From Lachnospiraceae bacterium (GTDB lineage: Bacteria > Bacillota > Clostridia > Lachnospirales > Lachnospiraceae): 64,000 bases of DNA. The translations under genes were made by a program, and so were the position numbers. Numbering within the stretch: position 1 is the stretch's first letter; each line of letters begins with the position of its first letter. The stretch spans positions 15,186 to 79,185 of the forward strand of contig JAAVZU010000006.1 of assembly GCA_022791815.1 (NCBI GenBank), written 5' to 3'. Below, one piece after another: positions 1 through 43,151 of the stretch. The notes under the pieces were generated by a model. It was not told the origin of the DNA. It did not search any database and saw only the letters and a list, made by a program, of their open reading frames with translations.

Positions 1-1388
1 GATGTAACATGAGATGTGGTCATTGTGGTTCCTCTTGTGCAGAACCCTTAGAGGGTGAACTTACAACTTCAGAAGCTTTAGATTTATGTGACCAGATTGC
101 CCAAATAGGTCTGAAATGGGTTACACTTTCAGGAGGAGAGCCTCTTACAAGGAAAGATATTTCAATGTTAATAGAACGGCTTTCTAAAAAAGGAGTCTCT
201 GTTAATATTATTACAAATGGATGGCTTCTTGACAAAAATATGGCAAAAAAACTAAAAGAAAGTGGTATTGCAACTGTTGCAATCAGCATTGACGGAACAA
301 GGGAAATCCATGATAAAATTCGTAAGAAAGATGCTTTTAGCCATGCAGAGCAAAGTTTTCAGATTATGAAAGAACTTGGTATTAAAACAGGTGCTGTAAC
401 AACTATAACAAATCAAAACATACATATACTTCGGGAGTTAAAAGAAGAACTGATACGTATGGGAGTTAAAACATGGCAGGTACAATTAGGACTTCCTATG
501 GGAAATTTAAAACAGAAACCTGACTGGCTTTTAGACCCCCAAAAGGTTCAGGATATTATAGACTTTTGTTATGAAACTGCGAAAGAAGGGCGGATCAAAA
601 TCTATCCAGCAGACTGTATTGGGTACTATACAAAAAAAGAAATGGAAATCAAAAAAATATCTTATGAGACAAATATGGTTTCTATATGGGATGGCTGTAA
701 TGCTGGTATCAGAGGTTTTGGAATTCTTCACAATGGAGATATTCTTGGATGTACTTCGATTCGTGATAAAAGCTATATAGAGGGAAATATTAGAGAACGT
801 TCCCTTCAGGATATCTGGGAGGATGAAAACAGTTTTTCATGGCGTAGGAAAATTAAAAAGGAACAACTGGAGGGTGAGTGTAAAACCTGCATATATGGCA
901 GTAAATGTCTGGGTGGGTGTCCAAATACCAGACTCACCATGAATGGAAGCATATATTCTGAAAACCAATATTGTGCCTACAATCTGAAATTAAAAGATAT
1001 GAAGGAAAAGCAGAAAACAAAAACAAAAGCAGAGGAACTATTTGAAACAGCGGATATTATGATAAAACAGGAAGTATATCAGGAAGCTGCCATTGTATTA
1101 TCACGATTGTTAGAGATAGATCCAAAACACAAAAGAGCATGGATTGCCAAGGCTTATGCAGAATATATGTGTGGTAATTATGAAACATGTAAAAGTGACA
1201 ATGAAAAAGCAATCAAGTTGGATGCTAACGATGCGGATGCACTGAGTGGATATGCCATTGCACTTTTTCGGATGGGAGATGTGCAGAATGGTATTGATAA
1301 TATGAAAAGGGCAGTATCTCTCTCAGGATGCAGGCAGGATATGTTAGAGGATTTATCCAGAATGCAGGCTATGGCAGAAAAGGCTTAA
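1..1388 (+). CDS. Radical SAM / SPASM-domain enzyme with C-terminal TPR repeats (5' end lies outside window)
   Basis: In frame from nt 3 the peptide reads CNMRCGHC (CxxxCxxC radical-SAM cluster motif), so the N-terminus is upstream of the window. It has a GGEPL motif and a Cys-rich SPASM region (CNAG...CKTCIYGSKCLGGCPN). The last ~120 aa look like TPR repeats (AWIAKAYAEYMCGNYETC, ALSGYAIALFRMGD). Confidence 0.85.
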   Translation, partial: CNMRCGHCGSSCAEPLEGELTTSEALDLCDQIAQIGLKWVTLSGGEPLTRKDISMLIERLSKKGVSVNIITNGWLLDKNMAKKLKESGIATVAISIDGTREIHDKIRKKDAFSHAEQSFQIMKELGIKTGAVTTITNQNIHILRELKEELIRMGVKTWQVQLGLPMGNLKQKPDWLLDPQKVQDIIDFCYETAKEGRIKIYPADCIGYYTKKEMEIKKISYETNMVSIWDGCNAGIRGFGILHNGDILGCTSIRDKSYIEGNIRERSLQDIWEDENSFSWRRKIKKEQLEGECKTCIYGSKCLGGCPNTRLTMNGSIYSENQYCAYNLKLKDMKEKQKTKTKAEELFETADIMIKQEVYQEAAIVLSRLLEIDPKHKRAWIAKAYAEYMCGNYETCKSDNEKAIKLDANDADALSGYAIALFRMGDVQNGIDNMKRAVSLSGCRQDMLEDLSRMQAMAEKA

Positions 1389-1444
1389 GAACAGAAAATA
1401 GTTTCTATAAAAGGAAAAAAGGAATGAAGAAATAAAAAGTAGAA

Positions 1445-1485
1445 AGCAGGGCTGCTACACGTTAGTGTAGTGGCTCTGCTTTTTT
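1445..1485 (+). terminator. Rho-independent terminator after the radical SAM gene
   Basis: 16-bp stem AGCAGGGCTGCTACAC / GTGTAGTGGCTCTGCT (three G-U pairs), GTTA loop, followed by TTTTT. Confidence 0.8.
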
Positions 1486-1493
1486 CATATCAC

Positions 1494-1516
1494 TAGGAAA
1501 GTGCTTTGCAATTGTG
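1494..1516 (+). repeat. Conserved 23-nt motif TAGGAAAGTGCTTTGCAATTGTG, copy 1
   Basis: Identical 23-mer recurs at 7174-7196, with weaker similarity for ~20 nt more. Both copies sit just after a terminator-like hairpin and before an operon promoter. Confidence 0.6.
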
Positions 1517-1547
1517 TTTGACATGTATAGATGTAGAAAATTTAGTA

Positions 1548-1594
1548 TTGACAAAACCGAGTATATACTGTATATATAATTATATACAGTATAT
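1548..1594 (+). promoter_or_regulatory. Sigma-A-type promoter overlapped by a 14-bp perfect inverted repeat (putative GntR/YtrA operator)
   Basis: TTGACA (1548-1553), 17-nt spacer, TATATA (1571-1576). Inverted repeat ATATACTGTATATA-TAAT-TATATACAGTATAT spans 1563-1594, 16 nt before the ABC gene start. Confidence 0.6.
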
Positions 1595-1610
1595 GAACGG
1601 AGGAACTGCC

Positions 1611-2465
1611 ATGTTAAAATTAGATCATGCATCAAAGGTTTTATCTGTTTTTCAGCTTCATGATGTAAGTTTTCATCTGCCGAAAGGATATATAATGGGG
1701 TTGGTAGGAGAAAATGGTGCAGGAAAAACGACTTTGTTAAATAATATTTTGGGATTGTATCAGCTTGATGCTGGAACTATAGAAATCAATGGAATGCATT
1801 ATAAAGAACAAGAAAAGGAAATTAAAAATCTATTAGGATATGTTTTAACAGATGAAGTATTTTGCGGGGAACTAACACTCATTCAAAATGCAGATATGTA
1901 TGGAAAATATTATGATAACTATGAGCAGAAGATTTTCTTAGAATATTGTGAGCGTTTTCATCTAAAGAAAAAGCAAAAGTTTAAAGAACTTTCCAAAGGG
2001 GAAAAATTAAAATTCCAATTTGCATTTGCTTTGTCTCATCAGCCGAAACTTTTAATTTTAGACGAACCTACTGCCAATTTTGATCCAGATTTTCGGAAAG
2101 AATTTCTAAAGATTTTATCAGACTTTGTTGCAGATAGTGAAAAAAGTGTACTTTTGGCAACACATATTACAGAGGATTTGGAGCGTATTGCTGATTATAT
2201 TACATTTTTACATAAAGGGAAGGTAAAATTTTCTATGGACAGAGAAACTTTAGAAAACAGCTATATGTTAATTAGTGGATTGGATTATAAAGTGAATCTG
2301 ATTAACAGAGAACAGATTATATATAAAGAAAAAGGAAAATATGCCACAAAAGCATTAGTAAAATATAGAAAACGGTATTTTGAGGAAGAGGGATTAACGG
2401 TAGAAGTGCCAAGCATTGAAGATATTATGTATTATATGTTGAAGGGGGAAGAAAAAATATGGTAA
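1611..2465 (+). CDS. ABC transporter ATP-binding protein
   Basis: Walker A GENGAGKTT, signature LSKGEKLK, Walker B LLILDEP. ATG at 1611 is preceded by GGAGG; the longer TTG-initiated ORF from 1506 runs through the promoter/operator and is not credible. Confidence 0.9.
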   Translation: MLKLDHASKVLSVFQLHDVSFHLPKGYIMGLVGENGAGKTTLLNNILGLYQLDAGTIEINGMHYKEQEKEIKNLLGYVLTDEVFCGELTLIQNADMYGKYYDNYEQKIFLEYCERFHLKKKQKFKELSKGEKLKFQFAFALSHQPKLLILDEPTANFDPDFRKEFLKILSDFVADSEKSVLLATHITEDLERIADYITFLHKGKVKFSMDRETLENSYMLISGLDYKVNLINREQIIYKEKGKYATKALVKYRKRYFEEEGLTVEVPSIEDIMYYMLKGEEKIW

Positions 2466-3121
2466 AAATGGTACTGCGTGACTGTATAAAAGGACGTAGA
2501 GAGGCATGGAAAAGAGTGTGGAGTAGTGGTAATAACTTTCTTATTCCAGAAATTGTTTTTTTAGGAGGAATAGCAGGTGGATATCATGGAACTATACAAT
2601 ACAATTTATTGTATTGGCTTGAAATTCTTTTACTAATGTTTCAGATTTTAATTTCTGTTATGTATCCGAATAGATTGTCTAAGCCTATGTTTCTGGTGCC
2701 TTTGGAGAATAAGGATAAGAAGAAATACCTATTGGCCATGTTTAGTTTAAAGTTAGGGATTTTTTCTGTGATGCATATTATAGTAACAGGAATTAGAGTA
2801 TGGACAGAATGCATCACTATGGAAAATGGGATTATATTTTTTTGGGTAGTAACTTTACTAAATATTATAATGGGATTACAAAATATAGGATTAGATGAAA
2901 CTAGTTTAAATTATAAGGTAACCTTTTGTGTATGTCTGTTTAATTGCTTTTTCTTTATGGGAATAGAAGAGAATTGGCAATGGTGGGAGTGTATTCTTGC
3001 TGCTATATGTTATATTACACAAATTATTTTATGTGTATTTTTCATAAAGAATGAGTGGACAATTTCAATGAAAAAAGCTATGAATTATGAACTGGTATAT
3101 GTAATCAATGAACAAAAGTAA
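2459..3121 (+). CDS. Integral membrane protein (putative permease partner of the ABC ATPase)
   Basis: Overlaps the upstream stop by 7 nt (translational coupling). Multiple hydrophobic helices; no recognisable catalytic motif. Confidence 0.65.
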   Translation: MVKMVLRDCIKGRREAWKRVWSSGNNFLIPEIVFLGGIAGGYHGTIQYNLLYWLEILLLMFQILISVMYPNRLSKPMFLVPLENKDKKKYLLAMFSLKLGIFSVMHIIVTGIRVWTECITMENGIIFFWVVTLLNIIMGLQNIGLDETSLNYKVTFCVCLFNCFFFMGIEENWQWWECILAAICYITQIILCVFFIKNEWTISMKKAMNYELVYVINEQK

Positions 3122-3133
3122 GAGGAGAACTAT

Positions 3134-3499
3134 ATGAAAATAGTAATAAAGACCCAAGGAACTTTGGCAATTTATGAACAAATCGTAAATCAACTGAAAA
3201 ATGCTATTGTGACAGGAGAGTTAAAAACAGGAGAGGCTTTGCCATCTATCCGAATGCTTGCAAATGACCTGCAGGTCAGCGTGATTACAACCAAAAGAGC
3301 CTATGAAGAACTAGAAAAAGAGGGATTGATACGATCTGTTGCCGGGAAGGGATTTTATGTGTGTGAGTATAATCAAGACTATTTAAAAGAAAAACAACTA
3401 ATGATGTTGGAGAAAAGACTTTCTGAGGTATTAAATGAATGCAGGGCGGCAGGATTGTCTAATGAAGAGATTGTGGAGATGGTAGAAACGCTATTATAG
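3134..3499 (+). CDS. GntR-family (YtrA-like, short) transcriptional regulator
   Basis: 121 aa. N-terminal winged HTH LPSIRMLANDLQVSVITTKRAYEELEKEGLI with only a short C-terminal helix region. RBS GAGGAG upstream. Confidence 0.88.
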   Translation: MKIVIKTQGTLAIYEQIVNQLKNAIVTGELKTGEALPSIRMLANDLQVSVITTKRAYEELEKEGLIRSVAGKGFYVCEYNQDYLKEKQLMMLEKRLSEVLNECRAAGLSNEEIVEMVETLL

Positions 3500-4772: not shown

Positions 4773-4833
4773 GTAACTGTTCAGAACAATGAACAGTTAC
4801 TCTCAGGTCACACGCAAAGTAAATGCGTGTTTC
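4773..4833 (-). repeat. Family-1 intergenic repeat, partial copy (hairpin C + hairpin A, no B)
   Basis: GTAACTGTTCA-gaacaa-TGAACAGTTAC (4773-4800) then CACGCA-aagtaaa-TGCGTG..TTTC (to 4833). Same modules as at 28700, 38333 and 40751. Confidence 0.75.
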
Positions 4834-4997
4834 TACCTTAATAGTTACAATTTATCTATATTGCAAATCAATATTTTGTGCATTATTGATTGAAATATAA
4901 AGTATGATATATAAAATTAGAAAATGATAAAATTTCTCAATAAGGTGATGATTATTGAAAACAGTATGATAAAAATAATAGATAGGAGGTATGTGGT

Positions 4998-12381: not shown

Positions 12382-12492
12382 TTTATACAAAAAAGTGTAT
12401 TCTTACTTTTACTTATTTGTGCTTGAGAAACAGGCATGTAAGTCTATAGTAGGAATGCACTTTTTGTATATTTTTTGGTAATTACTTAGGCA

Positions 12493-12517
12493 GAAACACG
12501 CATTTACAGCGTGTTTT
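12493..12517 (+). repeat. Family-1 repeat, solitary hairpin A
   Basis: GAAACACGC-atttaca-GCGTGTTTT between the convergent metY and tetR genes. Confidence 0.6.
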
Positions 12518-21426: not shown

Positions 21427-21635
21427 AAACTATATGCTGCCTTCGGCAGCACCACTATAAATGAAAGTGTCGGTTACTTCGCACTACATGCTCTTGTAAC
21501 CGCCTAATGTGTATTCGCAATCCAGGCTATCGCCTTACATGCTCATACACATTAGGTTCTACGATAGATATATCAATTGGTTCTTATGCAAGCACAAACC
21601 AATTGATTATCTATCGATAACACTTTCAGAGTAAA
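21427..21635 (+). repeat. Family-2 nested-hairpin repeat, full copy (fills the ilvD-ilvB spacer)
   Basis: 5' hairpin TGCTGCC-ttc-GGCAGCA, then outer stem GAAAGTGT/ACACTTTC enclosing three hairpins (CGGTTAC/GTAACCG; CCTAATGTGTAT/ATACACATTAGG; GATAGATA..CAATTGGTT/AACCAATTG..TATCTATC). Ends 15 nt before the ilvB ATG. Near-identical copy at 59971-60181. Confidence 0.85.
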
Positions 21636-23820: not shown

Positions 23821-23997
23821 AAATTGAGCTAATATATGGTACTAACAGTAACAAGTTCGTTACAGTTTGCAACATAGGTGTGGACTGTAACACAAGTTCA
23901 TTGACTTGCAGATAGAAAAAGAAAATAGAAAACTACTACAAGATATGCTATACTAAACAAAACAAAGAACCTTATGAGGAAAATAGGAGGGGAAATT

Positions 23998-25683
23998 ATG
24001 GCAAGAACAGTTTCCATAGGAAATCAGGACTTTGAAAGTATACAGAAGAATAATTATTTTTATGTTGACAAAACAAATATAATAAAAGAATGGTGGGAGA
24101 GTGGAGATGCAGTCACTTTGATTACACGTCCAAGACGTTTTGGAAAGACACTGACCATCAGCATGTTGGAGCAGTTCTTTTCCAATCGTTATGTAGACAG
24201 GAGCGATTTGTTTGAGGGTCTGTCTATCTGGGAATATCCGAAGTATCAGGAGTTGCAGGGGACTTATCCAGTCATCAGCCTATCTTTTGCCAGAGTAAAA
24301 GAGAAGGATTATATTACAACCAGAGAGAAAATTTGTGAGATAATTACCAATCTGTATATTAAATACTATTTTTTGAGAAATAGTGAAGTTTTAACAGAGA
24401 AAGACAGGGAATATTTTGACAGAGTGTCAACAGATATGCGTGACAGTGATGCTACATCTGCATTATACCAGTTGTCTGATTATCTGTGCCGTTACTATGG
24501 AAAAAAAGTCATTATCTTATTAGATGAGTATGACACCCCTATGCAGGAAGCTTATGTACACGGCTATTGGGAGGAACTTGTGGTATTTACCAGAAGTCTG
24601 TTTAATGCAACTTTCAAAACAAACCCCTATCTGGAACGTGCCATTATGACAGGGATTACAAGAGTAAGCAAGGAGTCAATTTTTTCCGATTTGAATAATC
24701 TTGAGGTAGTTACTACGACTTCTGAAAAGTATGCAGACTGTTTTGGGTTTACAGAACAAGAGATATTTGAATCACTTGATGAGTTTGGGCTGTCCGATAA
24801 AAAAGAAGAGATAAAGCATTGGTATGATGGTTTTACTTTTGGCAACCTGAGCGATATTTATAATCCATGGTCGATCATAAATTATCTAGACAAGAAACAG
24901 TTCAGACCCTATTGGGCAAATACCAGTCCCAACAGTTTGGTGGGGAAACTGATAAAAGAAGGAAGTCCGGAAATTAAGAAAGCTATGGAAGATCTCATAG
25001 AGGGGAAATCTTTGACAGCAGAGATTGATGAACAGATTGTTTTTAACCAGCTTGGACAAAGGGAATCTGCCATCTGGAGCCTGCTTCTTGCCAGCGGTTA
25101 TTTAAAAGTAAAAAATTATGTTTTTGATGATGCAAGAGATGGATTTTTTTATAAAATGGTATTAACAAACAGGGAAGTAATGTTTATGTTCCGAAATATG
25201 ATTAAGGACTGGTTTTCTCAGTATACATCGGACTATAATGAATTTATTAAGGCTCTGCTTCTGGGAAATGTAAAAGCTATGAACACTTATATGAACCGGG
25301 TGGCACTGCAGACCTTCAGCTTTTTTGATACAGGAAAACATCCATCAGAATATACAGAGCCAGAGCGGTTTTACCATGGTTTTGTGTTAGGTTTGATGGT
25401 AGACCTGCAGAACCGCTATCGCATTTTATCCAATAGGGAAAGTGGTTTTGGCAGATATGATGTGGTGTTGGAACCAAAGAACAGAGAAGATGACGGAATT
25501 ATTTTGGAATTTAAGGTTCAGGATGAGGAAGATGAAAAAACTCTTTCTGATACAGTATCAGCGGCACTGAAACAGATTGAGGAGAAACAGTATGCAGCAG
25601 ATTTGGTATCAAAGGGAATACCAGAAGAGAAAATCAAAAAGTATGGATTTGCTTTTCAGGGAAAGAAAGTACAGATTGGATAG
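23998..25683 (+). CDS. AAA-ATPase-like N-terminal domain protein with C-terminal PD-(D/E)XK nuclease-like domain
   Basis: FESIQKNNYFYVDKTNIIKEW...ITRPRRFGKTL (P-loop-like) at the N-terminus. C-terminal SNRESGFGRYDVVLEP...GIILEFKV (D...E.K). ATG 23998 follows GGAGGGG. Confidence 0.8.
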   Translation: MARTVSIGNQDFESIQKNNYFYVDKTNIIKEWWESGDAVTLITRPRRFGKTLTISMLEQFFSNRYVDRSDLFEGLSIWEYPKYQELQGTYPVISLSFARVKEKDYITTREKICEIITNLYIKYYFLRNSEVLTEKDREYFDRVSTDMRDSDATSALYQLSDYLCRYYGKKVIILLDEYDTPMQEAYVHGYWEELVVFTRSLFNATFKTNPYLERAIMTGITRVSKESIFSDLNNLEVVTTTSEKYADCFGFTEQEIFESLDEFGLSDKKEEIKHWYDGFTFGNLSDIYNPWSIINYLDKKQFRPYWANTSPNSLVGKLIKEGSPEIKKAMEDLIEGKSLTAEIDEQIVFNQLGQRESAIWSLLLASGYLKVKNYVFDDARDGFFYKMVLTNREVMFMFRNMIKDWFSQYTSDYNEFIKALLLGNVKAMNTYMNRVALQTFSFFDTGKHPSEYTEPERFYHGFVLGLMVDLQNRYRILSNRESGFGRYDVVLEPKNREDDGIILEFKVQDEEDEKTLSDTVSAALKQIEEKQYAADLVSKGIPEEKIKKYGFAFQGKKVQIG

Positions 25684-25700
25684 TAAAATTATTTGTAAAT

Positions 25701-25734
25701 ATTCAGATAGAAACAAACATTTACTGCATGTTTC
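25701..25734 (+). repeat. Family-1 repeat, degenerate solitary hairpin A with conserved ATTCAGATAGAAACA lead-in
   Basis: ATTCAGATAGAAACAAAC-atttact-GCATGTTTC. The stem is degraded relative to the 40760 copy. Confidence 0.5.
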
Positions 25735-28378: not shown

Positions 28379-28699
28379 ATACCATAGGTATAAAAGAAAT
28401 AAATATTGTTTCGTGATTTTGTTTGGTATGTGAAGAGTCTAATACCCTTCAAATTGATGGAGAAGGAGAGTTAATTTGAACTTGTTCACTGTGTTTACAT
28501 AATATCATAAAGAATAAAATTGCTGTCTTTTACAGTTTTATAAAAATATAAAGTTGCAATTGTGAAAGAACCTTCTTTCTGTTTGGCAGAGGGGAGTTTT
28601 TTATATAATATCATTAAAATGCCAAAAAAGAAATTTTGCTGTTTCAAAATAGTACTATAATAGCCCGCAGTTATGGTATAATATAATAAAATTCAGATA

Positions 28700-28830
28700 A
28701 TTTTTTAGATAGAAACATGCATTTAACGCGTGTTTCGAAAGAAAACTTAAATTGTATAGTGTTTAAACCCTTTCGCCGAAGGCAGATTATTATGGGCTTA
28801 AACGTAGCTGTTCATGGTTCTGAACAGTTA
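28700..28830 (+). repeat. Family-1 three-hairpin repeat, full copy (A-B-C) in the 5' region of the lipid kinase gene
   Basis: A is GAAACATGC-atttaac-GCGTGTTTC (28712-28736). B is GTTTAAACCC...GGGCTTAAAC with inner TTCGCC/GGCAGA (28761-28803). C is TAGCTGTTCA-tggttc-TGAACAGTTA (28804-28830). Confidence 0.85.
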
Positions 28831-28865
28831 AAAATTCAGAAACTATATGGAGATGGTGGAAGATA

Positions 28866-29852
28866 ATGGGAAAAAGAAAAAAGATGTTATTTTTGTTTAA
28901 TCCCTGTTCTGGGAAAGAACAAATAAAAAATAAATTAGCAGATATTCTGGATATTTTTGCAAAAGCTGATATGGAGATTGTAGTACGGCCAACCCAACAT
29001 GCAAAAGATGCCTACGAAACAATTGCGAAAACAGGGCATGAATATCATATGATAGTGTCTGCTGGTGGGGATGGAACCCTAAATGAAAGTTTTAATGGGC
29101 TGATGGAGGTAGCCAAAGAACAAAGACCATATTTTGGATATATTCCTACAGGGACCACTAATGATTTTGCAAATACATTAAAAATTTCTAAGAATCCACT
29201 AGAAGCAGCACAAGGGATTTTAGAGGGTGAAAAATTCTGGTGCGATGTTGGAAAAGCAAACACAGGATATTTTGCCTATGTAGCAGCTTTTGGTGTGTTT
29301 ACAAATGTAGCATACGATACACCCCAAGGCACAAAGAATATGCTAGGACATCTGGCATATATTCTTGAGGGAATCAAAGGAATTGTAAATATAGAAAGTT
29401 ATGATATGAAAGTGGAATATCAGGACAAATCTGGAAATAAGCAGGAGTATGAAGATAGTTTTATCTTTGGCATGGTATCTAATACCCGTTCTGTTGGAGG
29501 AATGAATCTAAAAAATACGGAAACTATAGATTTGCAGGATGGGTATTTTGAAGTAATATTAGTGAAAAAACCGAATAATCCTATTGAATTACAGCTTACT
29601 ATCAATGCGTTATTAACTAGGGATTTGCAATCAGAACGATTATATTTTTTCCATACAGATGCTGTTCGGTTTAATTGTGAGAAAGAAGTTTCTTGGACTT
29701 TAGATGGGGAATATGGTGGAACACAGAAAAAAATGAATGTGATTAATCTGCCCAAAGAAATACTTATGAAGGTAAAACCAGTAAAAAAGGGATTAATGAA
29801 TGCACTATTATCAGTAATTGAAGGTTCTAATAAGCAAGATGAAGATTCATGA
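28866..29852 (+). CDS. Diacylglycerol-kinase-family lipid kinase (YegS/BmrU type)
   Basis: LFLFNPCSGK..., SAGGDGTLNE and PTGTTNDFA motifs. Confidence 0.88.
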   Translation: MGKRKKMLFLFNPCSGKEQIKNKLADILDIFAKADMEIVVRPTQHAKDAYETIAKTGHEYHMIVSAGGDGTLNESFNGLMEVAKEQRPYFGYIPTGTTNDFANTLKISKNPLEAAQGILEGEKFWCDVGKANTGYFAYVAAFGVFTNVAYDTPQGTKNMLGHLAYILEGIKGIVNIESYDMKVEYQDKSGNKQEYEDSFIFGMVSNTRSVGGMNLKNTETIDLQDGYFEVILVKKPNNPIELQLTINALLTRDLQSERLYFFHTDAVRFNCEKEVSWTLDGEYGGTQKKMNVINLPKEILMKVKPVKKGLMNALLSVIEGSNKQDEDS

Positions 29853-38230: not shown

Positions 38231-38332
38231 GCAGAAGAGGGGGAAATTTTAAGTTGTAGTGGGAAAGGAAAAAACTACCAATTACCTCATGACAACAGGT
38301 AAGTTTATAAATTTGGCTTTTTATAACTATTT

Positions 38333-38460
38333 GTAACTGTTTGGAACCATGAACAGTTACGTTTAAGCCCATAATAATTCGCCTTCGGCGAAGGGGCTTA
38401 AACATTACAGAATTTACTTTTTCTTACGAAACACGCAGTAAATGCGTGTTTCTTGAATAG
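38333..38460 (-). repeat. Family-1 three-hairpin repeat, full copy in inverted orientation (C-B-A on + strand), just 3' of parC
   Basis: GTAACTGTTTG-gaacca-TGAACAGTTAC (38333-38360). GTTTAAGCCC...[TTCGCC-ttcg-GCGAA]...GGGCTTAAAC (38361-38403). GAAACACGC-agtaaat-GCGTGTTTC (38428-38452). Confidence 0.88.
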
Positions 38461-38466
38461 TTAAGA

Positions 38467-40710
38467 TTATTTTACAGATAAATCCGTCTTCTGACCTTTT
38501 GCACAGCGTCTTCGGTTTTTAACCTTTTTGGCATTATAAGATATATCATTGTAAATAAAAGTTTCTGTATCTGGAGATAGGGCAGTACCGAATACAACGT
38601 AGTCCTCTCCAGTAAGTGTAATTGCTTTTACACCACGGCTGCTACGTTTTAGCTGGGATACCTCATTTAGTTGGAAACCAAGAGATAAACCATCTTTTGT
38701 TAGAATAATAACCTTTCTGTCATCAGCAAGAATATCATTGGCAGATAACTGGGTGATAGAAACAATCTTATCCCCCTGTTCTAATTTTGTTGAGGCAATT
38801 ACGGAACGATTCGTTTCAAATTCTGCTCCAGATACTAGTTTTATAAATCCATTTTTCGTAGTAAATAAGAGCATACTGTCAAATAATTCTTCAAAACTAA
38901 AATAAGCAAGTACTTCTTCTCTTTCCAATTTACATAAGGAATGGATTAAGGTTCCTTTATCTTTTGCTCGGCATTTTGGAAGGTTCATGCCTTTTACCTG
39001 ATACATATTTCCTTCTGTGGTAAACACACAAAGCTTATCTGTATTTTTCATGGAAATAGTAAAAGAATGTTCTGCTTTTGTCGTTTCACTGGTCCTTCCA
39101 TAAGTGGTAGCATCTAATTTTTTTGTATAACCAAATCGGTCAATTAAAATATAAAGTTCTTCTTCTTTTACCTCTTCCACATAACTTTCATTTTTGGTAT
39201 TTGTAAGAAGTGTTTTTCTTGGGGCAGCAAATAATTTCTTATATTCACGAAGACGGCTTTTGATTACTTTGTAAAGTTCTTTTTTATTGGATAAAATAAT
39301 TTCATATTTTTGAATATTTTCTGCAAGAGAGTCTCCTTCTTCATGAAGTTTTAAAACTTCTAAACCAATTAATTTGCTAAGCTGCATAGAAAGAATAGCA
39401 TCTGCCTGTCGTTCTGTAAAATCAAGAGTCTGGGCAGTTTTGGAAGATGCTTTGCTTTTGAAATTAATATCTGTGATATCTCCATGCATAAGGCAGGCTT
39501 TTGCCTGTTTGATGGAGGTACTTCCACGAAGAATTTCAATAATCAAGTCAATTAAATCTGTAGCACGAATTAAACCATTTACAATTTCAAGCCGTTGTTT
39601 TGCTTTTTGAAGAAGATGTGTATACTCTTTTGTATATAATTCTTCTTGAAAAAGTACGAACTCCTCAATCAGAGATTTTAGATTAAATGTAATTGGTTGT
39701 TGCTCCTTGACTGCAAGAAGATTTACCGAATAAGTATCTTCTAAGCTTGTCTTTTTGTAAAGACCATTTAGCAGGTTTGTAATATTACGGTCTTTTTTTA
39801 CCTCTATAACAATACGGATACCCTCCTTAGAAGATTCATCTCTTACATCATAGATTTCATCAAATACCCTGTCTTTCATGAGAGTAGCAAGATTTTCTAC
39901 AAGTTTTGACTTATTTCCTGCTACCGTATAAGGAATTTCAGAAATAACAATGTTTTCTCTTCCGGCATCACCTTTTTCGATATTCACTTTCCCACGAATT
40001 TTTAATTTGCCTTCCCCAGTACGGTAAATGTTGGGAATATCGGATTGGTTTACAATAATACCCCCTGTTGGAAAATCTGGAGCAGGAATATATTCCATAA
40101 GTTTCTCAATAGAAATAGAAGGTCTGTCCATATAGGCAATCACTCCATCAATAACTTCAGATGGATTGTGAGGCGGTATATTAGTAGCCATGCCTACTGC
40201 AATACCTGTAGTTCCATTAATAAGTAAATTAGGAAGTATAGCAGGCAGAACAGAGGGTTCTTTTTCGCTTTCATCAAAATTGGGTATAAATTCTACCAAA
40301 TCCTTATCCAGATTGTCAAGCATAGTCTTTGCACCAAGAGAAAGACGGGCTTCCGTATATCGCATTGCGGCTGCACCATCTCCATCAATAGAGCCAAAGT
40401 TACCATGCCCATCCACAAGAGGAATAGATAAAGAATATTCTTCTGTCATGTGTACCAAAGCATCATAAATGGAACTGTCACCATGTGGGTGATATTTACC
40501 CATAGTATCACCCACAATACGGGCACTTTTTCTATGTGGGCGGTCAGGAGCAAGACCTAACTCACTCATAGCATACAAAATCCTTCGTTGTACTGGTTTT
40601 AAACCATCCCTTACATCTGGTAAGGCACGGGCAATAATTACACTCATAGCGTAATCACGGTAAGAATTTTTCATCTCTTCTGAAAAATCAATTTGAATAA
40701 TATTTTCCAT
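38467..40710 (-). CDS. parC: Type IIA DNA topoisomerase subunit A (topoisomerase IV ParC-like; a second GyrA paralogue cannot be excluded)
   Basis: [21 protein letters not shown] and active-site [10 protein letters not shown]. 747 aa, shorter than typical GyrA. No GyrA-box (QRRGGKG) seen in the C-terminal beta-pinwheel. Confidence 0.85.
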
Positions 40711-40750
40711 AATCTATACCAAAACTATAAAAGTATCCTTTCTTGTAATT

Positions 40751-40880
40751 ATTCAGGTAGAAACACGCATTTACTGCGTGTTTACGTAGCAAAATGTAAA
40801 TTTTGATTGTTCTAAGCCCTTCGCTGAAAGCGAATTTCCATGGGCTTAGAACGTAAGTGTTCATGGTTCTGAACAGTTAC
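40751..40880 (+). repeat. Family-1 three-hairpin repeat, full copy (A-B-C) between parE and parC
   Basis: ATTCAGGTA-GAAACACGC-atttact-GCGTGTTT (40751-40783). TCTAAGCCC...[TTCGCT-gaa-AGCGAA]...GGGCTTAGA (40811-40850). GTAAGTGTTCA-tggttc-TGAACAGTTAC (40853-40880). Confidence 0.88.
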
Positions 40881-40930
40881 CCTTTCTTAATAAATATTTA
40901 ACAACAGAAATATAATTGCCAAGATTTTTA

Positions 40931-42898
40931 TTAAACATCCAGATTTGCATATTTTGCTTCTTCCATAATAAATGCACGACGAGGTGGAACATTACTGCTC
41001 ATAAGAGTTGTAGTGATTTCATCTGCTTCCACAGTATCACTAATGGAAACTTGTGCAAGGATTCTGGTTTCTGGATTTAAGGTAGTTTCCCAAAGCTGTT
41101 CTGCGTCCATTTCACCAAGACCTTTGTACCGTTGGACATTAAGAAGTTTATTTCCTGGAATTTTTTTGAATTTTTCCAGTTCAAAATCATTAAAAATATA
41201 TTGAGACTTTTTGGTCTTTTTACGTCCTGTTTTCTTTTTTGATGAATCAGTCTTTTTCGTATCATTTGTTGTCTCATATTCTACACGATACAGAGGTGGA
41301 AGACCACGGTAAATCTTACCTTCTGTAATTAGCTGCGGCATAAAACGATAGAAAAAGGTAAGAAGTAAAGTGCTAATGTGTGCCCCATCTACATCGGCAT
41401 CTGTAAGAATAATAATTTTATCATATCGAAGTTTGGTAATATCAAATTCATCTCCAATTCCACATCCAAAAGAAGCAATCATGGATTTGATCTCATTGTT
41501 TAGAAGAATTTTTTCAAGGGAAGCTTTCTCCACATTTAAAATCTTGCCCCTAAGAGGAAGAACGGCTTGTGTCTTACGGTTTCTTGCTGTTTTTACGGTA
41601 CCACCTGCGGAATCTCCCTCCACAATATAAACTTCACATTCTTCTGCTTTTTTGGAAGAGCAGGAAGCAAGTTTACTGCGGGTATCCACATCATGAAGCT
41701 GCTTTAATACAGCATTTCTCGCTTTATCGCTGGCTTTTCTGGCATTATATGATTTCATGGAATTTTCTAAGATGCAGCGAAGAACTTCAATATTTTTATC
41801 AAAATACCGCTGGACTTCTGTAGAGAATACATCATCTACTGCACTTTTTGCGTCTGTATTGCCAAGTTTTGTTTTGGTCTGTCCCTCAAACTGTGGGTCA
41901 GGATGTTTGATAGAAATAATGGCGAAAATGCCATTACGAATATCTTTGCCATCAAAGTTTTCGTCTTTATCCTTTAATATGCCAAGTTCCCTTGCATAAA
42001 GATTCATTACTCGGGTAAGTGCAGTTTTAAAACCAGTAACCAGAGTACCACCATCTACCACATTGATGCGGTTGCAAAAGGCATTAATTTGTTCTGAATA
42101 ATTATTGGTATATTGAAAAGCAACCTCTACCTCAATATCACCACTTTTCCCCTCTATGTAAATAGCATCTTCATGTAAAACTGTTTCTTCACGGGTCAGG
42201 TAACGGACAAAACTCTGTATACCAAATTCTTCCTGATAAGTAATCTCTTCATCTGTATATTCATTTTTGAAAGTAATCTGTAGATTTTTATTCAAATATG
42301 CAATTTCTTTTAATTTTTTCTTTATAATTTCACTTTTAAAAACTACAGTTTCAAAAATACTATCATCTGGATAGAACGTAACAGTAGTACCAGTGTCTGA
42401 CTTTTTGCAGGTGCCAATTATTGGTAATTGTCCTTTTACCAGTTTGGTAACAGGATGACCACCGTTTTCATAAATATCCTGATATATATTCCCATCTCTT
42501 CGGATCTCTACTTTCATTTTGGAAGAAAGAGCATTCACAACGGAAGAACCTACACCATGCAGACCACCAGATACCTTATAAACGGTGTTATCAAATTTTC
42601 CGCCAGCATGAAGAATGGTATAAACCACACGTACAGTTGGAATTTTCTTAGTTGGGTGTAAATCCACTGGTACACCACGACCATTATCTTTAATGGTGAT
42701 ACCTCCATCTTTTTGCAGGGTAATATTTATTTTTGAACAGAATCCTGCCAAATGTTCATCAATACTATTATCTAAAATTTCCCAAATTAAATGATGCAAA
42801 CCCCGTTTGCCAGTACTTCCAATATACATACCTGGTCTCTTACGGACAGCTTCTAAACCTTCTAAAACCACAATCTGGCTTCCATCATATTGTCCCAT
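40931..42898 (-). CDS. parE: Type IIA DNA topoisomerase subunit B (ParE/GyrB family ATPase)
   Basis: GLEAVRKRPGMYIGST, HHLIWEILDNSIDE (GHKL ATPase) and Toprim EVYIVEGDSAGG...DADVDGAHI motifs. RBS GGAGG upstream. Confidence 0.88.
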   Translation of the reverse strand: MGQYDGSQIVVLEGLEAVRKRPGMYIGSTGKRGLHHLIWEILDNSIDEHLAGFCSKINITLQKDGGITIKDNGRGVPVDLHPTKKIPTVRVVYTILHAGGKFDNTVYKVSGGLHGVGSSVVNALSSKMKVEIRRDGNIYQDIYENGGHPVTKLVKGQLPIIGTCKKSDTGTTVTFYPDDSIFETVVFKSEIIKKKLKEIAYLNKNLQITFKNEYTDEEITYQEEFGIQSFVRYLTREETVLHEDAIYIEGKSGDIEVEVAFQYTNNYSEQINAFCNRINVVDGGTLVTGFKTALTRVMNLYARELGILKDKDENFDGKDIRNGIFAIISIKHPDPQFEGQTKTKLGNTDAKSAVDDVFSTEVQRYFDKNIEVLRCILENSMKSYNARKASDKARNAVLKQLHDVDTRSKLASCSSKKAEECEVYIVEGDSAGGTVKTARNRKTQAVLPLRGKILNVEKASLEKILLNNEIKSMIASFGCGIGDEFDITKLRYDKIIILTDADVDGAHISTLLLTFFYRFMPQLITEGKIYRGLPPLYRVEYETTNDTKKTDSSKKKTGRKKTKKSQYIFNDFELEKFKKIPGNKLLNVQRYKGLGEMDAEQLWETTLNPETRILAQVSISDTVEADEITTTLMSSNVPPRRAFIMEEAKYANLDV

Positions 42899-42930
42899 TT
42901 TATAACCTCCATATTATTTCATGCTATTTG

Positions 42931-42978
42931 TACTGTTCATAATTCTAAACAGGTAACTGTTCAACCATGAACAGTTAC
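42931..42978. repeat. Family-1 repeat: tandem hairpin-C modules just upstream of parE
   Basis: Degenerate TACTGTTCA-taattc-TAAACAGGTA followed by the perfect GTAACTGTTCA-acca-TGAACAGTTAC (42954-42978). Confidence 0.7.
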
Positions 42979-43151
42979 AATATTACTATTATTCCAGATT
43001 ATTTACAACTGTTAGCATAACATAAAAAAAGAAAAAATGCAAACGAATGTTCGTTATTTTTTTTATTTTTTTGTATAACAGTAGTTACTGTTCACTCACA
43101 AGCTTGACACTTGCTGTAAAGCTATGTGCCGAGAATATAATACGGTAACTA

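Follow-up and report, generated by a model that had tools for sequence, protein, structure and literature searches.

What are the three-hairpin repeats that lie around the type IIA topoisomerase genes of a Lachnospiraceae bacterium, and how did they come to be there? The stretch analysed here, referred to below as the window, comprises 64,000 nucleotides of a 3.56-Mb draft genome with 34% G+C (assembly GCA_022791815.1, contig JAAVZU010000006.1; C6:15186-79185 of genome G000 in our own numbering). A first-pass annotation of the window, made from its letters alone, had described seven full or partial copies of a ~130-bp repeat built from three hairpin modules (A, B and C). All seven are present, at positions that are right to within a few bases, with limits for the full copies that are slightly wider than those first given. 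As set out below, comparison of these copies with others in the same genome, in related species and in public metagenomes indicates that the repeat is very probably a family of MITEs (miniature inverted-repeat transposable elements) whose ends are of the IS66/ISBst12 type, a new family of a known kind.

Anatomy of the repeat unit

The full unit is 133-136 bp in length and is bounded by 12-bp terminal inverted repeats (GTAACTRTTCAG), immediately outside which lie 8-bp target-site duplications. When 33 near-full copies are aligned together with 50 nt of flanking DNA, conservation extends from GTAACTATTCAGG to CTGAACAGTTAC. The left end of the unit and the 8-bp flanking repeats had been missed by the first-pass annotation. 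The unit starts with GTAACTATTCAGGTA, 15 bp before module A, and because this sequence pairs inversely with the last 12 bases, the unit has true terminal inverted repeats. The left repeat reads GTAACTATTCAG and the right one, read inwards, GTAACTGTTCAG, an inverted match at 11 of 12 positions.

From left to right, the unit is made up of GTAACTATTCAG, the trinucleotide GTA, hairpin A, a 24-nt A-rich linker, the nested hairpin B and palindrome C, with the consensus GTAACTATTCAGGTA, GAAACACGCATTTACTGCGTGTTTC (A), GTAAGAAAAAGTAAATTTTGTAAT (linker), GTTTAAGCCCCTTCGCCGAAGGCGAATTATTATGGGCTTAAAC (B) and GTAACTGTTCATGGTTCTGAACAGTTAC (C). In the C palindrome, two perfectly inverted 11-bp arms are separated by 6 bp; where it occurs as a solo unit it measures 28 bp. 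Its outer arm is the right terminal repeat of the element, whereas its inner arm gives a third copy of the left end, in direct orientation.

Target-site duplications and empty sites

Two lines of evidence point to insertion as the origin of the copies. The first comes from their flanks. Of 31 full copies, 13 are bordered by a perfect 8-bp direct repeat and 25 by one matching at 6 or more of the 8 positions; for 66 solo C units the corresponding figures are eight and 39, and control flanks offset by 20 nt gave no match at this level. Every well-preserved copy has its 8-bp repeat. Other duplication lengths between 4 and 12 bp yielded 0-1 perfect matches each, much like the offset control.

The second line of evidence comes from orthologous sites. 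The spacer between the topoisomerase subunit B and subunit A genes (parE-parC) is 220 bp in length here, including a 136-bp unit, and is ~20-30 bp and empty in four other species of the genus (G002, G006, G008 and G009); in a fifth, G010, it contains a different family member at another position. Similarly, the solo C unit at C70:85575, which is flanked by the duplication GATTTTAC, is represented in both G003 and G004 by a single G[T/A][C/T]TTTAC with no palindrome. The empty orthologous sites in sister species confirm insertion. In G003 (L136, G003:C142) the site at 40737-40888 is occupied by a full copy that shares the duplication CCTTTCTT and belongs to the other subtype, which suggests either conversion between copies or repeated use of the same target.

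The repeat therefore has the features by which MITEs are recognised: terminal inverted repeats, a fixed 8-bp duplication, small non-coding units in many copies, empty sites and an autonomous element with matching ends and the same duplication length, described below. In the mechanism that we propose, a DDE transposase supplied in trans would bind both terminal repeats and, by a staggered cut, place the unit in AT-rich DNA; repair of the cut would duplicate 8 bp of the target. Decay and internal deletion after insertion would generate the partial forms, and the surviving copies would be almost all intergenic, tending towards the upstream gene's stop codon. An origin of the partial forms by deletion is probable, as is a role for the hairpins in propagation of the element and not in the biology of the host.

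Genome-wide census and placement

An nhmmer search seeded with the copy at 38333 gave 109 matches in the 3.56-Mb genome. Profiles for the individual modules gave 72 matches to the left end plus A, 73 to B and 153 to C at E<=1, compared with one, none and one, respectively, in the reversed genome. Clustering of the module matches produced 205 loci, so that the genome-wide search proposed by the first-pass annotation has ~205 loci to set against 0-1 reversed-genome matches per module. Solo C units are the commonest form (97 loci), followed by full left end-A-B-C units (35), left end-A (27), B alone (23), B-C (11), left end-A-C (six), left end-A-B (four) and C-C (two). The order of the modules is constant across all loci and never permuted: contrary to the original suggestion that the modules are shuffled independently, the variants are probably deletion or truncation derivatives of a single arrangement.

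Gene positions were taken from a simple (and crude) open reading frame (ORF) map of 2966 ORFs, by which 84% of the genome is coding. On this map, 199 of the 205 loci are intergenic (binomial P ~1e-150), and their distribution among tandem, convergent and divergent spacers is roughly proportional to spacer length. The median distance of solo C units from the upstream stop codon is 19 nt, and they are nearer to that stop in 47 of 67 cases and to the downstream start in 20 (P = 0.001). An overlap of 3-4 nt between the element and the end of the upstream ORF is seen in nine cases, the stop codon falling within the terminal GTAA of the element. The census bears out the earlier description of a dispersed, non-coding, intergenic and modular family of hairpin repeats.

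A candidate parent element

Ends beginning with GTAA and an 8-bp duplication led us to suspect the IS66 family of insertion sequences (ISs). Genome G010 contains five matches to PF03050 (DDE_Tnp_IS66), two of which lie inside 1.8-kb units with GTAACAGTTCAGCCTT at both ends. Each unit has a single ORF of 485-487 amino acids, comprising DUF6444 and DDE_Tnp_IS66 domains, with PF03050 scores of 69-73 bits against a cut-off of 23.1. The NCBIfam IS66 model NF033517 is matched end to end (1-384 of 387 positions) at 134-146 bits, below its cut-off of 180, which marks the transposases as a divergent branch of the family. This branch is common in gut metagenomes and rare in reference genomes of the bacterial family, ~2 of 200 of its genera having a full copy at >=60% identity.

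Eighty relatives from gut metagenomes have ends reading GTAACAGTTCAGCC, GTTACAGTTCAGCC or GTAACTATTCAGCC, and the first 12 bases of GTAACTATTCAGCC are identical to the left end of the MITE. Perfect 8-bp duplications flank seven of the insertions (L166, L167, L169, L173 (twice), L180 and L224), with a further example at L239 (G221). The elements are ~1.82 kb in length (L132 (G010:C87), 589-2418; L133 (G010:C47), 1352-3166; L167, 1183-3002; L239, 1454-3070). Their ends fold as hairpins, GTAACAGTTCAGCC-TTCC-GGCTGAACTG, also given as GTAACAGTTCAGCC-TTCC-GGCTGAAC. As the IS ends are themselves hairpins, module C can be read as a palindrome of the IS-end type extended to its last base: judged by its sequence, it joins two transposon ends back to back, mirroring the hairpin end of the parent IS.

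Independent support for the assignment comes from ISDge4, an ISBst12-group element of Deinococcus geothermalis with one ORF, GTAACTGCTCAGCA at its ends and a direct repeat of 8 bp (PMC12898284), which ties both the end type and the duplication length to this group. The MITE end GTAACTGTTCAG resembles that of ISDge4, both being of the GTAA... type (PMC12898284). More generally, ISBst12-group elements share with the MITE ends of the form GTAAC..(T/C)TCAGC and an 8-bp direct repeat, and have one transposase ORF (PMC12898284), a description that the 1.8-kb elements (L132, L133, L167 and others) fit. The MITE differs from these elements in having no transposase gene and in possessing A and B hairpins without a counterpart in the sampled ISs. 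Taken together, these results make it likely that the transposase of an ISBst12-like IS, or a close relative of it, moved the copies seen here.

Several observations weigh against this interpretation. The evidence for transposition is comparative throughout. Past the 12-14 terminal bases, modules A and B match nothing in 85 IS loci, where matches to the MITE profiles are confined to the terminal palindrome, so the MITE is not a simple internal-deletion derivative of any sampled IS. The first-pass annotation had named as one way to overturn its proposal that the modules might prove to be parts of an IS end; this holds for C, an end-type palindrome of the IS66 family, and does not hold for A and B. 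An IS66 transposase was not detected by Pfam profile or protein search in G000, in G003 (which has the most and the youngest copies) or in G004, only remnants being present in G004 and G007, and mobilisation in trans cannot therefore be attributed to a resident gene. Draft assemblies and metagenome-assembled genomes (MAGs) often drop the contigs of multi-copy ISs, which we count as an excuse and not as evidence. A further difficulty lies in the solo C units: at 28 bp these seem too short for a DDE transposase to synapse two ends, yet they bear 8-bp duplications of their own. Nor do they appear to be products of recombination between the left end and the internal copy of that end, as the diagnostic A at position 7 is found in the left arm of 11 of 66 and in the right arm of 12 of 66.

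Searches for a larger relative within G000 found no multi-copy transposase ORFs in the assembly and no long elements lying between MITE ends with a duplication. The same search in 114 public loci had a single match, an RtcB gene with a solo C unit on either side, which is probably a coincidence. The arrangement (L089, 4446-5914, in a public MAG) comprises an RtcB RNA-ligase gene with outer 8-mers that match at 7/8 positions, and is formally composite-like.

Sister families and orientation bias

The family found in the window (F1) is accompanied in G000 by at least three sister families with GTAAC(A/T)GTTCAG-class ends and 8-bp duplications: F2 (GTAACAGTTCAGGTAG...), with 22 near-full copies and 81 matches, F3 (GTTACTGTTCAC...), with 27 and 67, and F4, with seven and 23. 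The same genome contains 31-bp palindromes (GTAACAGTTCAGCC-N3-GGCTGAACTGTTAC) that also have 8-bp duplications. Examples of the sister families and palindromes are located at C101:10290-10422, C14:17513-17657 and C19:39505-39650. F1, F2 and F3 have a common layout in which an end is followed by hairpin A, a "CGTA.GAAA" linker, nested hairpin B and an end palindrome, the sequences of the stems being different in each. The layout is also kept in variants from public loci and in a relative on plasmid pNP243.

The copies are not randomly oriented. With the direction of replication inferred from GC skew on draft contigs, the top strand of the element is on the leading strand in 63 of 88 near-full F1-F3 copies (P = 6e-5), and a bias in the same sense is seen in public MAG loci (41:21). 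That the bias is present in convergent and divergent spacers (17:5) indicates that it follows replication and not transcription. One explanation, to which we give a small chance of being correct, is that an ISBst12-type IS66 transposase acts on hairpin ends that are single-stranded at the replication fork. The hairpin ends of the IS would fit with this, as would 28-31-bp palindromes that fold into a single duplex "end" and have their own 8-bp duplications, and the presence of three diverged families at ~2.5:1 on the leading-strand side, including where transcription gives no direction. Hairpins A and B, which are conserved and have a C-GAA-G inner loop of the type that forms very stable DNA mini-hairpins, would on this model be cis-acting DNA structures needed for propagation.

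Alternative explanations

Conserved hairpins raise the question of whether the repeats are primarily functional structured RNAs (3'-untranslated-region stabilisers, processing sites, attenuators or small RNAs), with mobility secondary. Conservation of the three-hairpin layout across F1, F2, F3, L082, the G010 copy and pNP243, despite divergence of the stems, would be expected of such RNAs, and 38 diverse members of F1, when aligned, have 90.7% of cells paired, with changes on both sides in 20 of 42 pairs compared with 7.7 in shuffles (0 of 500 shuffles being as high). Such compensatory changes would, however, be seen just as much if transposition were limited to master copies with an intact structure. 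Within this genome, the first-pass claim that stems are maintained through G-U pairs is not sustained: the mismatches are G-T in 66 cases, A-C in 56 and other in 65, the symmetric pattern of neutral decay without RNA-type strand asymmetry. Copies are co-oriented with flanking transcription by 49:24, but this leaves one third of them antisense to their neighbours, and the orientation bias persists in spacers where the flanking genes converge or diverge. A weak inner hairpin resembling a terminator is present on the top strand, but promoter- and terminator-like matches directed outwards are no more frequent than in shuffles, and no copy matched Rfam at the gathering threshold (whole window) or at E<=10 (38300-43000). 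Overall, we consider a primary RNA function improbable; intact hairpins were presumably required in propagating copies, and most of the resident copies are presumably dead. No support was found for a pseudoknot in which the A loop (ATTTAC) would pair with the linker (GTAAAT): only 83% of cells are paired, and the key pair is broken in 12 of 37.

The first-pass annotation had likened the repeat to repetitive extragenic palindromes and bacterial interspersed mosaic elements (REP/BIME), which are spread by a domesticated Y1 transposase (RAYT, IS200-like) acting on single-stranded hairpins. Much about the C palindrome recalls these elements: its ~100-fold occurrence in extragenic DNA, often just past stop codons, its place in a mosaic of modules and a leading-strand bias of ~2:1, as in single-strand transposons. 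Y1 transposition, whether of IS200/IS605 or of REP elements by RAYT proteins, yields neither target duplications nor terminal inverted repeats. Both are present here, the former at a fixed 8 bp, so the family lacks the defining character of palindromic elements derived from IS200/IS605 and the likeness fails. A search for the RAYT/IS200-like transposase that the annotation had suggested returned only a decayed, frame-broken Y1 remnant (PF01797; C104:12206-12399 of G000), on a contig with no copy of the repeat, and we regard this origin as highly improbable. Scarcely credible is the idea that a DNA-binding regulator uses C as its operator, with the copies forming its regulon. Perfectly inverted over 11 bp around a 6-bp spacer and located in intergenic DNA, C has the form of an operator, but ~150 copies, the majority nearer to the upstream stop than to the next start, do not have the placement of one; they are flanked by target duplications and polymorphic between species, and C forms the physical end of an IS as well as that of a larger mobile unit. 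These comparisons leave the MITE interpretation as the one that we favour.

Relationship to known repeats

Like the present family, REP/BIME elements are abundant extragenic palindromes, often downstream of genes and in mosaics; they differ in their dependence on Y1 and in having no such terminal inverted repeats and no target duplication. The comparison with BOX elements, also made by the first-pass annotation, is apt, since BOX of Streptococcus pneumoniae (boxA-boxB-boxC) is considered MITE-like, and a resemblance of its ends to the ends of a resident IS has been proposed (PMC3049150). BOX shares with the family an A-B-C modular structure, similar size, ~100-200 copies, intergenic location, hairpins and partial combinations. 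It belongs to another lineage and varies in the number of boxB units where the family described here appears to vary by deletion. The likeness is architectural only. The link to an IS is also much tighter here, with 12 identical terminal bases and the same duplication length, than the weak similarity between BOX and ISSpn2 (PMC3049150).

Bacterial MITEs such as Correia elements (Neisseria), RUP (S. pneumoniae), Nezha (cyanobacteria) and MITEPsy1 (P. syringae) are likewise small, AT-rich, non-coding, intergenic and multicopy, with inverted repeats and a fixed duplication. Known bacterial MITEs also have strong secondary structure, and their ends match those of an IS that could move them in trans (defined in PMC3049150; for MITEPsy1 see PMC3189936). 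The new family departs from them in its ends and 8-bp duplication, which point to the IS66 family (ISBst12 group), in a right end that is a complete terminal-repeat palindrome and in having 28-bp two-end units as its commonest form. We found no MITE attributed to the IS66 family in the searchable literature, and neither there nor in Rfam did we find a description of the repeat; the first-pass annotation, too, was not aware of such a family in this lineage.

Distribution among relatives

BLAST searches with the consensus against 60 relatives found the family in six of 11 species of the genus and, outside the genus, one weak partial match only. Two congeners, G003 and G004, have 550-670 candidate matches that are 97-99% identical to the consensus. 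In the present genome the median identity is 92.6% (range 80-97%), which points to a population that is older and decaying.

When public genomes were scanned for its exact pattern, the C palindrome turned up many times in each of two MAGs, "uncultured Clostridiaceae bacterium SRR14411333_bin.4" and "Clostridiales bacterium Mgla_MAG_39-bin_2", and singly in several Lachnospiraceae. Plasmid and phage collections yielded a single match, to a distant relative carried by Butyrivibrio fibrisolvens plasmid pNP243 (L134, ~2985-3125). This has the same A loop CATTTACTG, the CGTAAGAAAA linker and a nested B hairpin, combined with a different terminal palindrome (ATGACTTTTTG...), and is located upstream of a YoaK-family gene; there are three such places in the record.

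The topoisomerase locus and other features of the window

The features of the window are listed in Table 1. The topoisomerase subunit A gene has the 38333-38464 copy inserted right at its stop codon, the TAA (38469-38467) falling within the left-hand duplication AAATAATC (minus strand, 38472-38465). The copy at 40745-40880 lies in the spacer that separates the subunit B gene from that of subunit A and is antisense to both. That at 28697-28831 ends 34 nt before a lipid/diacylglycerol kinase gene (28866-29852).

Bracketing of the topoisomerase genes was the most prominent claim of the first-pass annotation. The window contains seven loci where 3.7 would be expected (Poisson P = 0.08), and the bracketing is therefore not significant; as described above, the spacer is empty or differently occupied in other species of the genus. 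We see no sign of a function peculiar to the topoisomerase genes. Nor do the copies on either side of the subunit A gene form a composite transposon: the 8-mers on the outer sides, AACTATTT and CCTTTCTT, fail to match, and both copies are flanked by duplications of their own.

Table 1. Copies of the repeat and other features of the window
Position (strand)	Feature	Flanking 8-mers (left / right)	Match	Remarks
28697-28831 (+)	Full copy, 135 bp	AAATTCAG / AAATTCAG	8/8	Degenerate left terminal repeat; duplication at 28689-28696 and 28832-28839
38333-38464 (-)	Full copy, 132 bp	AACTATTT / GATTATTT	6/8	3 nt deleted after left terminal repeat; decayed duplication
40745-40880 (+)	Full copy, 136 bp	CCTTTCTT / CCTTTCTT	8/8	Subtype b (B stem TTCTAAGCCC/GGGCTTAGAA); duplication at 40737-40744 and 40881-40888
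4773-4848 (-)	Internally deleted copy, 76 bp	AATTCATC / AATTTATC	7/8	Left end, A and C; linker and B gone
12478-12517 (+)	Truncated copy			Left terminal repeat and hairpin A, then linker remnants
25695-25734 (+)	Truncated copy			Left terminal repeat and hairpin A, then start of linker
42932-42978	Tandem pair of C palindromes			First degenerate; divergent spacer upstream of subunit B gene
43084-43140 (+)	Truncated F3 copy			GTTACTGTTCAC end and hairpin CTTGACA..TGTAAAG; divergent spacer of subunit B gene
38467-40710 (-)	Type IIA topoisomerase subunit A gene (GyrA/ParC-like)			NF004044, 736 bits, above cut-off; context only
40931-42898 (-)	Type IIA topoisomerase subunit B gene (GyrB/ParE-like)			NF004189, 870 bits, above cut-off; context only
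21462-21628 (-)	Clostridiales-1 RNA			RF01699
60007-60173 (-)	Clostridiales-1 RNA			RF01699
63762-63931 (+)	Clostridiales-1 RNA			RF01699

Two further observations concern the window. Three Clostridiales-1 RNAs (RF01699, 92-113 bits) are present, representing a separate dispersed structured repeat; this was considered as an identity for the family and set aside, being a different repeat without GTAAC ends. The copy at 25695-25734 begins 12 nt past an ORF (23974-25683) that has a paralogue of at least 70% identity elsewhere in G000 (C70:77151-78386), and ~640 bp from this paralogue is a fragment consisting of the left end and A (C70:79025).

Significance

Together with its three sister families, the family accounts for several hundred loci in some gut Clostridia genomes. 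Repeats of this kind break assemblies and seed false "structured RNA" or "operator" calls. They are found at gene ends, where the GTAA termini can supply the stop codon, and inside operons, as between the topoisomerase subunit B and A genes. If our interpretation is correct, they would provide a large natural set of non-autonomous substrates for the poorly studied IS66/ISBst12 group, a set that fixes the minimal ends at 11-12 bp and the target duplication at 8 bp, and that offers three puzzles for this group: very short two-end units, an orientation bias linked to replication and a hairpin architecture that is kept across diverged families.

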